Source: an uncultured Clostridia bacterium
GTDB lineage: Bacteria; Bacillota; Clostridia; TANB77; CAG-508
Assembly: GCA_948852945.1 (NCBI GenBank)
Contig: CAQPBJ010000001.1
Location: 64,417-128,416, forward strand
DNA length: 64,000 bases
Direction of reading: 5' to 3'
Each line of letters opens with the position of its first letter. Positions within the stretch are counted from its first letter, which is position 1. The position numbers and the translations under genes were made by a program. The notes under the pieces were generated by a model. It worked only from the letters and a program-made list of their open reading frames with translations, did no database searches and was not told the DNA's origin. Shown piece after piece: positions 34,017 to 36,707 of this stretch.

Positions 34017-35303
34017 TTATTTTTTAGGTTTTAATATTTCAATTCCACCCATATAAGGACGTAGAACTTCAGGAATAGTTATTGAGCCATCTTCTTGATA
34101 ATGATTTTCTAAAAATGCAATTAACATACGAGGTGGAGCAACAACTGTATTATTAAGAGTATGAGCATAATAATTACCTTTTTCACCTTTAATTCTAATA
34201 CCAAGTCTTCTAGCTTGAGCATCTGTTAAATTAGAACAGCTACCAACTTCAAAATATTTTTGTTGTCTAGGGCTCCAAGCTTCAACATCAACACTTTTAG
34301 CTTTTAAGTCAGCTAAGTCACCACTACAACATTCTAAAGTTCTAACTGGAATATCCATACTTCTGAATAATTCAACAGTATAGTTCCACATTTTTTCATA
34401 CCAATCATAACTATCTTCAGGTTCACAAACAACAATCATTTCTTGTTTTTCAAATTGATGTATTCTATAAACACCACGCTCTTCAATACCATGAGCACCT
34501 TTTTCTTTTCTAAAACATGGAGAATAAGAAGTCATAGTATATGGAAGATTAGCTTTATCAAGAATTTGTTCTTTAAATTTACCAATCATTGAATGTTCAC
34601 TAGTACCAATTAAATATAAATCTTCGCCTTCAATTTTGTACATCATGGCATCCATTTCTTCAAAGCTCATAACACCAGTAACAACATCAGATCTTATCAT
34701 ATAAGGTGGAATGCAATAAGTAAATCCTTTATTAATCATAAAATCTCTAGCATAGCTTAAAATAGCACTATGAAGTCTAGCAACATCACCAACTAAATAA
34801 TAAAAACCATTACCAGCAACTCTACGAGCAGCATCTAAATCAAGTCCACATAGACTTTCCATAATATCAGCATGATAAGGAATTTCATATTTTGGAACAA
34901 CTGGTTCACCAAATTTTTCGTTTTCAACATTTTCACTATCATCCTTACCAATAGGAACAGATTCATGCATAATATTAGGAATCTTCATCATAATATTAGT
35001 AACTTTTTCTGCATATTCAGTCTCAAGTTTTTCATTTTCAGTAAGTTTATCATTAATTTCTTTAACTTCAAGTTTAATTTTTTCAGCTTCATCTTTTTTA
35101 CCATCACGCATAAGGCCACCGATTTGATTACTTAAAGTATTTCTTTTACTTCTAAGTTCATCACCAGCAAGCTTAAGTTCACGATTTTTTGCATCTAATT
35201 CAATAACTTCATCAACTAAAGCTAATTTATGCATTTGAAACTTATTTTTTATATTTTCTTTAACCACATCTGGGTTTTCTCTTAAAAATTTTATATCTAT
35301 CAT
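34017..35303 (-). CDS. serS: Serine--tRNA ligase
   Basis: N-terminal coiled-coil arm (MIDIKFLRENPD) and class II core motifs, full length. Confidence 0.96.
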   Translation of the reverse strand: MIDIKFLRENPDVVKENIKNKFQMHKLALVDEVIELDAKNRELKLAGDELRSKRNTLSNQIGGLMRDGKKDEAEKIKLEVKEINDKLTENEKLETEYAEKVTNIMMKIPNIMHESVPIGKDDSENVENEKFGEPVVPKYEIPYHADIMESLCGLDLDAARRVAGNGFYYLVGDVARLHSAILSYARDFMINKGFTYCIPPYMIRSDVVTGVMSFEEMDAMMYKIEGEDLYLIGTSEHSMIGKFKEQILDKANLPYTMTSYSPCFRKEKGAHGIEERGVYRIHQFEKQEMIVVCEPEDSYDWYEKMWNYTVELFRSMDIPVRTLECCSGDLADLKAKSVDVEAWSPRQQKYFEVGSCSNLTDAQARRLGIRIKGEKGNYYAHTLNNTVVAPPRMLIAFLENHYQEDGSITIPEVLRPYMGGIEILKPKK

Positions 35304-35315
35304 TATAAATCCTCC

Positions 35316-35567
35316 TTATTTACAATTATAATCTGTTAGATTATTAATTAATTCAAATCTAACTTTTTGACCGGTTACATTATCAGGTCTTTCTGGAATT
35401 TCTTCTAAAAACATTGTTTCAGGACGTACACAAATTTTACCTGAACCATCTAAATGACGGTAAACAACAACTCTTTCTTGTGTTTCGGAGTCAAACCCAA
35501 CACAAACAACATAATAAAAGGGACCTTTAAAATGTCTATAAACTTCTCCTTCTTTAACTTCTTTCAT
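35316..35567 (-). CDS. DUF1653-family protein
   Basis: YRHFKG..Y.V......SET.E..VVYR......RP..MF......GQKVRFELI pattern. Confidence 0.7.
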   Translation of the reverse strand: MKEVKEGEVYRHFKGPFYYVVCVGFDSETQERVVVYRHLDGSGKICVRPETMFLEEIPERPDNVTGQKVRFELINNLTDYNCK

Positions 35568-36378
35568 TTTTCTTTACCTCCTTAGAATTTATATAATCTT
35601 TTGATAAATCCTCACAAAGTTCAAATCTATGTTTTTGACCAGTGATATTATCTTTTTTATTAGGATCAATTTCTTCAAAAAACATTTTAGCAGGCCTGTT
35701 CCAAAGCATAGAATCTTTTCTTTCATATAATGGTCTATAAACAATCATATCTTCTTTAGTTTCAGAATCCATACTAATATTTTCTATGAAATAGTAATTT
35801 CCTTTATAATGACGAAATACTTTGCCAATATAATCAACATAAATTTTAGAGCCAACTAAACCATCTTCATCTTGATAAACAGGAGTAGACTCGTTTTGAT
35901 ATAGTAAATCTTCAGTCATTCCATCAGTTAATTCTTCGAAAACAATTTGGCCAATACGTAAGTTAGGAGTTATTCTATACGAATTGCAAGACATATTATG
36001 CATTGCAATATTTAAAATTCCAGAATAACCAGCCTGAGCATGTTGAAGATTTATATATAAACCTAATCTACTAAGAGATGTTCTAGGTCTAATATGAGCA
36101 ACTATATTTTCAGGCAGATATATTTTTTCATTTAAAGCACATAAAATAGTTTCATTAGGTTTTAAACAATATCCATTTTTTATATCAACTTCTTCATACA
36201 TTTTTGAAATTTGTTCACTATTATTCAAATCAATTACTTTAAAAGACTTTTTAATTTTCAAAATTGTAGAGGAGACTGATATATCATAAGAACCTGAATT
36301 TACATTATCTATATTAAATGGGTTAATTAAATCTTTTTCTTCTACTAATTTTTTAATATCATTTCCATTAAGTATCAT
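35554..36378 (-). CDS. dCTP deaminase/dUTPase-fold protein fused to a C-terminal DUF1653 domain
   Basis: N-terminal Dcd-like pattern (L.GNDI...SGSYDISV...RPRTSLSRLGL...GYSGILNIAMHN...RIGQIVFE). C-terminus is FRHYKGNYYFI...IVYRPLY...RPAKMF...GQKHRFEL. Confidence 0.7.
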   Translation of the reverse strand: MILNGNDIKKLVEEKDLINPFNIDNVNSGSYDISVSSTILKIKKSFKVIDLNNSEQISKMYEEVDIKNGYCLKPNETILCALNEKIYLPENIVAHIRPRTSLSRLGLYINLQHAQAGYSGILNIAMHNMSCNSYRITPNLRIGQIVFEELTDGMTEDLLYQNESTPVYQDEDGLVGSKIYVDYIGKVFRHYKGNYYFIENISMDSETKEDMIVYRPLYERKDSMLWNRPAKMFFEEIDPNKKDNITGQKHRFELCEDLSKDYINSKEVKKNERS

Positions 36379-36384
36379 AATAAC

Positions 36385-36612
36385 TCCTTAAAAACAAAAA
36401 ATCCCTTATGCTAAAAGCATAAGGGCGATTAATATTTCGCGGTACCACCTTGATTTATAACTTGATAAGTACTATAACCTGTACAAAAGGTCTAACTTAT
36501 TAGGTTAGAAGCTAAAGAGTAGATTCATAAAATGTTTTAATCTGTTTTCACCAGCCACAGACTCTCTAATAAAACTTAGATTACTATAATCTCTTATCAT
36601 TGCCAAATTATG
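36385..36612 (-). promoter_or_regulatory. T-box riboswitch leader, Ser specifier (UCU)
   Basis: Minus strand carries AGAGAG and GCUGGUGA stem I elements and specifier loop GAA-UCU-A (codon at 36521-36523). Conserved GGUGGUACCGCG sits at 36438-36449. Terminator CCCUUAUGC-UUUU-GCAUAAGGG + U-run. TTGACA/TAAAAT promoter at 36619-36647. Confidence 0.88.
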
Positions 36613-36707
36613 TATACAATTTTAGCATCAAAATAAATATTTGTCAAATGTTGAAATAGAAAAATATTATTGATAAAATCTAAAGAAAAAAAGAGAAGGA
36701 AGAAAAA

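Follow-up and report, generated by a model that had tools for sequence, protein, structure and literature searches.

A 64,000-nt stretch of a metagenome-assembled genome (MAG) of an uncultured Clostridia bacterium (assembly GCA_948852945.1, contig CAQPBJ010000001.1, positions 64,417-128,416), called the window in what follows, carries on its minus strand an operon with the seryl-tRNA synthetase gene serS. In the order of transcription, this operon consists of a promoter-like site, a serine-specific T-box leader, a gene in which a dCTP deaminase (Dcd)-like domain is fused to a C-terminal DUF1653 domain, a free DUF1653 gene, serS and a closing terminator (Table 1). An earlier note, made from the sequence alone, had described the three genes as one unit under Ser T-box control, and had suggested a link between DUF1653 and seryl-tRNA or nucleotide metabolism.

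A serine T-box leader ahead of three tightly packed genes

Profile matches confirm the three closely packed genes delineated in that note, with their coordinates and with the 14-nt overlap between the fusion gene and the free DUF1653 gene. The fusion protein matches PF22769 (DCD; 7e-28), TIGR02274 (101.7 bits against a cut-off of 92.8) and the DUF1653 family PF07866, and the two DUF1653 modules both exceed the Pfam cut-off of 23.5 (64.4 and 71 bits). SerS reaches 426 bits against TIGR00414, for which the cut-off is 302, and is matched by both PF02403 and PF00587. A gap of 12 nt, with GGAGG inside it, separates the free DUF1653 gene from serS. The assembly as a whole contains one serS, one Dcd-like gene, two DUF1653 modules (both at this locus) and seven T-boxes.

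The leader aligns with the full T-box model of Rfam (RF00230, model positions 1-219; 86.5 bits, E 1.2e-18) and contains the elements of a Ser T-box as they had been described earlier, namely the specifier GAA-UCU-A, the conserved core GGUGGUACCGCG and a terminator. A UCU or UCC specifier is kept in 15 related leaders, and homologous leaders in relatives score 103-115 bits against RF00230. The UGGU at 36447..36444 is predicted to pair with the 3' end GCCA of tRNA-Ser, with a U-G pair at the discriminator base G73; the two tRNA-Ser genes found in the assembly, with the anticodons UGA and GCU, both encode CCA and have G at position 73. Terminator and antiterminator share a strand: CCCUU is the 5' arm of the former and the 3' arm of the latter, and the two structures are mutually exclusive. 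On folding, the terminator is strongly favoured (-17.6 kcal/mol, z -3.1) and the antiterminator alone is marginal (-5.1 kcal/mol), as expected for a switch that needs tRNA to stay open. A distance of 10 nt separates the promoter-like site from the beginning of the T-box match downstream; promoter-like matches in this region are not more common than in shuffled sequence.

A scan of 33850..36800 revealed two terminator-like sites, the T-box terminator and the one after serS, and none between the three genes. The T-box and the closing terminator bound the three genes, which agrees with the single unit proposed in the earlier note, and on this arrangement the genes are probably co-transcribed. Control of serS by a T-box is found in at least 29 of 34 Firmicutes (PMC2494555). 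The present leader shares with other Firmicute serS leaders of RF00230 the Stem I specifier loop with a Ser codon and purine, the conserved core, a UGGN bulge complementary to the tRNA 3' end and the competition of terminator and antiterminator, but its Stem II region is shortened, and serS is the third gene behind it and not the first.

Table 1. Positions in the window of the operon elements and of other features.
Feature	Coordinates	Strand	Evidence
Promoter-like site: TTGACA, 17-nt spacer, TG-extended TAAAAT	36619..36647	-	Best regional match, 11/12 positions
T-box leader: Stem I with specifier loop, reduced Stem II region, Stem III, antiterminator	36418..36609	-	Rfam RF00230
Specifier GAA-UCU-A: GAA 36526-36524, Ser codon UCU 36523..36521, purine A 36520	36520..36526	-	Sequence and Rfam model alignment
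Conserved T-box sequence AGGUGGUACCGCG	36438..36450	-	Sequence and Rfam model alignment
T-box intrinsic terminator: 10-bp GC-rich stem and U-run; hairpin 36425..36403	36393..36425	-	Terminator scan
Fusion gene, 274 aa: Dcd-like domain and C-terminal DUF1653	35554..36378	-	Pfam and NCBIfam matches
Dcd-like domain, aa 1-180 of the fusion	35839..36378	-	Alignments to 1XS1, 1XS4, 2QXX, 4XJC; Foldseek
DUF1653 domain of the fusion, aa 187-253	35620..35820	-	PF07866, 1.3e-17
Free DUF1653 gene, 83 aa, own Shine-Dalgarno	35316..35567	-	PF07866, 1e-19
serS, seryl-tRNA synthetase, 428 aa	34017..35303	-	TIGR00414
Operon-closing intrinsic terminator	33980..34006	-	Terminator scan
purA, directly downstream of serS; in-frame TGA at 33670..33668	32528-33874	-	
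6S RNA	15228-15419	+	81.6 bits
glmS ribozyme	41697-41853	-	75.7 bits

Loss of catalytic residues in the Dcd-like domain

The AlphaFold model of the fusion is of high confidence (predicted local distance difference test, pLDDT, 91.6), and its Dcd-like domain superposes on Dcd structures in Foldseek with TM scores of 0.85-0.88 (best E 2e-14). A search of PHROGs yielded three families in all, one of dCTP deaminase and two without a known function. The fold is thus kept, and the question raised by the earlier note, whether the catalytic residues are kept as well, was addressed with alignments and this model. The catalytic glutamate of Dcd, which we take to be Glu138 in Escherichia coli and Glu145 in Methanocaldococcus jannaschii in view of the substrate-trapping PDB entries E138A and E145A, is replaced by Ala125 in the fusion (GILNIAMHN against GCIVLEFYN in E. 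coli). Owing to this Ala, the PDB entry that matches the fusion best in sequence is 1XS4, the E138A mutant of the E. coli enzyme; no paper on this Dcd mutant was located in the open literature. Likewise, the Asp of dUTPase motif III, Asp128 in E. coli Dcd and Asp90 in Dut, is Gln115 here, at a position where the E. coli, Mycobacterium tuberculosis and Bacillus halodurans enzymes have the Asp of I/VDPG. Among 111 full-length homologs of the fusion, the column of the catalytic Glu is unconstrained (Ala in 51, Thr in 20, Leu in 13, Ser in 9, Glu in 6, others in the rest), and the motif III column holds Asn in 94, Gln in 10 and His in 7, never Asp.

The rest of the nucleotide site has been retained. 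Residues R99, T100, S101, R104, Q112, G120 and N128, which include the triphosphate-binding Arg/Ser motif, are invariant or nearly so in the same 111 homologs, and Y160, Y168, Q169, G173, G176, S177 and Y180 of the C-terminal lid are invariant or at least 90% conserved. Conserved phosphate-binding residues and lid together with lost catalytic residues indicate that the domain is under selection and probably still binds nucleotide. For M. tuberculosis Dut, the single exchange D83N leaves nucleotide binding unchanged and lowers catalytic efficiency to 0.0002 of wild type, which makes the enzyme practically inactive (PMC5519681). Judged by its sequence, the Dcd-like domain is no functional deaminase, as the residues for both deaminase and dUTPase chemistry are absent, and the deaminase-like domain that the earlier note placed under tRNA-Ser control does not amount to a pyrimidine deaminase. 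The domain is most likely a (deoxy)nucleotide-binding module that would bind its ligand without turning it over.

With Dcd and the bifunctional Dcd:dut enzymes (1XS1, 2QXX, 1OGH of M. jannaschii and 4XJC of B. halodurans), the domain has in common the fold, the RxS/TSxxR phosphate motif and the C-terminal lid; it differs from them in the exchange of E138 for Ala and of D128 for Gln or Asn, and in the DUF1653 that is appended after the lid. How such a module may work is illustrated, by analogy only, by the trimeric dUTPases of staphylococcal phages (PMC5593958; PDB 3ZF4 and relatives), in which the superfamily fold acts as a nucleotide-dependent protein-interaction switch and not in metabolism. 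Phage dUTPase structures are among the Foldseek matches of the fusion at E ~1e-5. Unlike the fusion, in which catalysis is apparently lost and the added module is DUF1653, the phage proteins are active enzymes that use an inserted motif VI.

The architecture is not peculiar to the window. The Dcd-like::DUF1653 fusion is common to 120 homologous clusters, and the order of T-box, fusion, one or two free DUF1653 genes and serS recurs in 14 other genomes, which answers the doubt of the earlier note whether the arrangement is unique to this genome. Within the genus, 6 of 22 genomes carry the fusion. No stand-alone Dcd was found in any of 41 related genomes, 35 of them lack any Dcd, and where the fusion is present it is the sole Dcd-like gene; with this distribution, the fusion is an accessory gene. 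Divergent members of the fusion family are located between rplL and rpoB, next to a gene for a Y-family (IMS) polymerase, near rseP and after rplS.

DUF1653 in front of serS, valS and ileS

The AlphaFold model of the free DUF1653 protein (pLDDT 92.4) is a small five-stranded SH3-like barrel. Its sole significant fold match is 3BE3, a DUF1653 protein of Bordetella bronchiseptica (Foldseek probability 1.00, TM 0.66-0.71), on which a profile search of the PDB agrees; the remaining matches all have E >0.1 and represent generic barrels of the SH3-like type (among them Tudor, ribosomal L2 and the HEX1/eIF5A N-domain). Like 3BE3, on which the model superposes, both modules match PF07866, but 3BE3 is a stand-alone proteobacterial protein without an assigned function, whereas the copies studied here belong to a synthetase-linked subfamily. 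Counted by residues, the protein has a slight excess of acidic ones, which is not in favour of RNA binding. The family is large (6,938 clusters at 50% identity, E up to 0.001), and a search of the literature for DUF1653 or PF07866 gave one entry in a proteomics paper and nothing else. A weak single-sequence match to the editing domain ProXp-ala (E 0.65) was followed up as a sign of a YbaK/ProX identity; it was lost with a profile query, Foldseek gave no such fold, and the candidate was rejected.

Of 41 close relatives, 34 carry DUF1653, as do 159 of the 201 genomes sampled from the order. A Ser T-box followed directly by a free DUF1653 and serS, with no Dcd, is the arrangement in most members of the genus and is also seen in other genera and in one other family. 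By comparison of coordinates, DUF1653 and serS are adjacent on the same strand in at least 20 genomes of the order sample. A species-level scan, with one genome per species, returned 419 relatives; the following locus counts come from the best 80, all of which are MAGs of uncultured gut Clostridia or Bacilli, including Clostridium sp. CAG:343. A synthetase gene lies directly downstream of DUF1653 at 75 of these 80 loci, and at 64 it is serS; three of the others have a gene for a MATE/(d)CMP-kinase fusion in this place, and two are ended by the contig. A T-box core was found upstream of 32 of the 72 DUF1653-serS operons that could be scored and was lacking in 40, for which an Rfam search at 7 sampled loci also gave no T-box (7/7). 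The upstream regions of operons without a T-box look like plain promoters. The DUF1653-serS pairing is therefore independent of the riboswitch. The older unit is probably DUF1653 followed by serS, with or without a T-box, widespread in a clade of uncultured gut Clostridia and Bacilli. The synthetase-linked DUF1653 sequences are strongly conserved, with 23 invariant columns. The neighbourhood survey proposed in the earlier note supports a linkage to serS, but one that includes a T-box in less than half of the scored operons. In the MAGs of L062/L131 and L068, serS seems to be divided over two overlapping frames (~120 + 316 aa), as a result of a frameshift or an assembly error.

The linkage is not restricted to serine. 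Among the remaining best loci, valS follows DUF1653 in six (NF004349, 1244 bits) and a type-2 ileS in five (TIGR00392, 966 bits), and the order sample contains three further Ile cases; a linkage to thrS was not seen among the ~130 loci covered. The leaders at these loci are strong T-boxes, each with the specifier that suits the synthetase behind it (GUA for valS, AUC for ileS). Genomes with a valS- or ileS-linked DUF1653 mostly have a single copy and no copy at serS. The tie to seryl-tRNA that had been suggested holds, therefore, as a non-random linkage to synthetase genes with serS as the main partner, but is neither specific to serine nor dependent on a T-box. At four loci, DUF1653 precedes a gene of odd architecture, in which a MATE transporter is joined to a C-terminal (d)CMP-kinase-like domain (~670 aa).

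A tree of 131 DUF1653 domains (80 columns, midpoint root, low resolution) places the generic copies, found away from synthetase genes, in one group (support by the Shimodaira-Hasegawa-like approximate likelihood ratio test, SH-aLRT, of 94), and all synthetase-linked copies together with all C-terminal domains of fusions in the other. The valS-linked copies nest within a serS-linked clade (support 99) beside the free copy of the window, the ileS-linked copies sit among other serS-linked ones, and the C-terminal domains of fusions form one cluster (support 92). The simplest reading of this topology is that DUF1653 was relocated from serS operons at least twice, once to valS and once to ileS. A single-copy DUF1653 that moves among serS, valS and ileS operons argues against a partner of one particular synthetase; these relocations are compatible with a function that tracks the expression of synthetases as a class, or else with a passenger gene that has a preference for this slot.

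The generic copies and the fusions provide scattered leads on function. HD-domain genes are located directly downstream of 6 of ~25 generic copies, far more than expected by chance, though some of the genomes are related; four are confirmed by Pfam, and these belong to different subfamilies (one YfbR-like, one dGTPase-like and two HDIG). The candidate that these HD neighbours are Ap4A hydrolases of the YqeK type, which would tie them to side-products of synthetases, was discarded, with generic HDIG matches only and a YqeK score of 23.8 bits against a cut-off of 70. Among 44 long proteins in the top 150 matches of DUF1653, Pfam revealed single cases of fusion to DCD, NRDD/Gly_radical, AAA_28, MORN_2 and OGT_N domains, while two recurring C-terminal extensions (15 and 7 clusters) had no Pfam match. 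One public protein of 215 aa (P0322) joins DUF1653 to a short C-terminal piece of NrdD with the zinc ribbon and glycyl-radical motif, similar to a spare glycyl-radical module. The disabled Dcd, the NrdD fragment, the AAA_28 P-loop, the HD genes and the MATE/(d)CMP-kinase neighbour share a nucleotide theme; on the nucleotide side of the link put forward in the earlier note, these scattered fusions and neighbours are leads and not a result. What the present analysis adds is the linkage to valS and ileS, the relocation of a single copy, the fraction of operons that lack a T-box, and the HD genes next to generic copies.

Extra leading genes are common in T-box operons of this genome. Four of its six other T-boxes stand directly before pheST, glyQS, tyrS and aspS, and, with the operon of the window included, three of seven T-box operons have an extra leading gene. 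On contig C13 (15146-18700), an Ile T-box with the specifier AUC precedes a 161-aa protein of the tRNA_edit or YbaK-ProX type (PF04073, 104 bits) and then ileS, an arrangement that puts a trans-editing factor under tRNA-Ile control. On contig C10 (26000-29926), a Val T-box with the specifier GUA precedes an aldose-1-epimerase gene (PF01263, Aldose_epim) and then valS; three relatives have the epimerase-like gene upstream of the T-box instead, and DUF1653 in the slot before valS. Anti-TRAP is a small regulatory protein that is produced in response to uncharged tRNA. The T-box-controlled anti-TRAP of the Bacillus subtilis at operon (Sarsero et al., 2000, as cited in PMC2494555) and T-box operons with leading genes such as cysE resemble the present operon in that a non-synthetase gene is under uncharged-tRNA control ahead of, or in place of, a synthetase. 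They differ in that cysE and anti-TRAP (Trp regulon) are tied to the same amino acid, whereas DUF1653 stands behind Ser, Val and Ile T-boxes alike. For cysS and asnS, a second place behind the T-box has been noted (Wels et al., 2008; PMC2494555). The general statement of the earlier note that T-boxes normally sit directly before their synthetase gene, or before amino acid biosynthesis and transport genes, is too strict as far as synthetases are concerned.

Downstream of serS, the window contains purA, the sole copy in the assembly, which has a higher G+C content than the window (43.5% against 28.5%) and is interrupted by an in-frame TGA where relatives have Tyr, Asn or Asp. Its P-loop reads GDCGKGR; the canonical purA P-loop is GDEGKGK. 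The segment of 1.65 kb that carries it (~32361-34007) is an insertion relative to the closest relative, and the purA that follows serS in other relatives is merely 42-48% identical. This purA looks like an acquired or replaced copy that is now interrupted, or like an assembly or sequencing error. The 6S RNA and the glmS ribozyme elsewhere in the window are consistent with a Firmicute-type genome.

Interpretation of the operon and of its DUF1653 genes

Taken together, the locus is, with good probability, a classical transcription-attenuating T-box responsive to tRNA-Ser that gates a three-gene operon, in which a disabled Dcd fusion was inserted into the older pair of DUF1653 and serS. By default, the leader would fold into the terminator and transcription would end at ~36403. 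Uncharged tRNA-Ser would pair through its anticodon with the UCU specifier and through its free GCCA end with UGGU, and this pairing would stabilise the antiterminator and let the polymerase continue past the terminator into all three genes. The close packing of the three genes is compatible with translational coupling. In our reading, the fusion was already a complete gene when it was inserted, later and in one lineage, between the leader and the DUF1653 of the serS operon.

Several observations weigh against parts of this reading. The T-box score is 6.5 bits below the Rfam gathering score of 93, a result of the shortened Stem II region, and a default-threshold Rfam search of the window lists no T-box; the match is recovered in E-value mode. 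A tRNA-Ser with a GGA or AGA anticodon, which would pair perfectly with UCU, was not found in the assembly, which is 74% complete. The earlier note had named an internal promoter or terminator as something that could separate serS from the upstream genes; the scan mentioned above gave no intergenic terminator, but a promoter-like match at 10 of 12 positions lies inside the free DUF1653 gene (35538..35511), and some transcription of serS independent of the T-box is possible. As to the fusion, six of the 111 homologs have Glu at the catalytic position, and loss of the canonical residues may be compatible with a different chemistry. The direction of the fusion event is not firm with a tree of 80 columns and a midpoint root, and the fusion may have been born in place and not inserted.

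That the fusion is nonetheless an active dCTP deaminase/dUTPase, which would couple the synthesis of dUMP and dTMP, and with it the use of serine-derived one-carbon units, to serine status, is the least probable of the explanations and a very poor fit. It could draw on the confident Dcd fold, on a TIGR02274 score above the cut-off, on the name 'dCTP deaminase' given by sources and on the fact that this is the only Dcd-like gene in the genome. However, the catalytic Glu is replaced in an unconstrained column, the motif III Asp is missing in 111 of 111 homologs, and the exchange of this Asp for Asn alone inactivates Dut (PMC5519681). In addition, the absence of Dcd from 35 of 41 related genomes indicates that the clade does not depend on the pathway, and induction upon serine shortage would have the wrong sign for a pathway that consumes serine. 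Hardly less improbable is that DUF1653 is an accessory dedicated to SerRS or tRNA-Ser, such as a factor for quality control or trans-editing. The dominance of serS as partner (64/80 loci), the true trans-editing domain in the same position before ileS and the weak ProXp-ala match could be taken in its favour, but that match disappears with a profile query, the fold search gave no editing domain, and the protein, which is acidic, has with 62-83 aa too few residues for the deacylase folds that are known. In addition, a DUF1653 at serS is lacking where the genome has a valS- or ileS-linked copy, and generic members of the family are not near synthetase genes.

A broader role of DUF1653, an acidic SH3-like barrel, in which demand rises with the expression of synthetases, is possible, and we put it forward tentatively. 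Somewhat less likely, in our view, is that DUF1653 is hitch-hiking: the slot between terminator and synthetase gene would tolerate insertions, a small gene that moves readily would have settled there and been inherited, and its position would say nothing on function. The unrelated leading genes in this genome (tRNA_edit before ileS and Aldose_epim before valS) speak for such a tolerant slot, as do the many unrelated contexts of generic DUF1653 copies and divergent fusions, and the switching of a single copy among serS, valS and ileS operons fits a passenger as well as a partner. Yet the pairing with serS is kept in 40 species without a T-box, a synthetase gene is directly downstream at 75 of the best 80 loci of the synthetase-linked clade, the relocations, of which there were at least two, both led to the front of another synthetase gene, and the synthetase-linked copies group apart from the generic ones and have 23 invariant columns. 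More specific, and more doubtful again, is the idea that DUF1653 may be a small factor of the aminoacylation or starvation response that couples nucleotide-binding or -hydrolysing partners (disabled Dcd, Nudix, HD) to tRNA charging, with the fused Dcd as a sensor by analogy to the phage dUTPases. If true, this would explain why DUF1653 is the first cistron of serS, valS and ileS operons.

While the T-box and serS are of known kinds, the unusual part of the operon is its conserved cargo, a mis-annotated pseudo-enzyme fusion and a DUF1653 that tracks synthetase genes. The fusion partner is clearly a pseudo-enzyme of the dUTPase superfamily, and the annotation 'dCTP deaminase', under which public databases still list the fusion, is misleading and should not spread further. 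As the locus also shows, extra leading genes are frequent in the T-box/aminoacyl-tRNA synthetase operons of these small-genome gut Clostridia, and one such gene, in front of ileS, encodes a trans-editing domain. For the large and uncharacterised DUF1653 family, the position as first cistron behind the cognate T-boxes of three synthetase operons offers a testable handle on its function.

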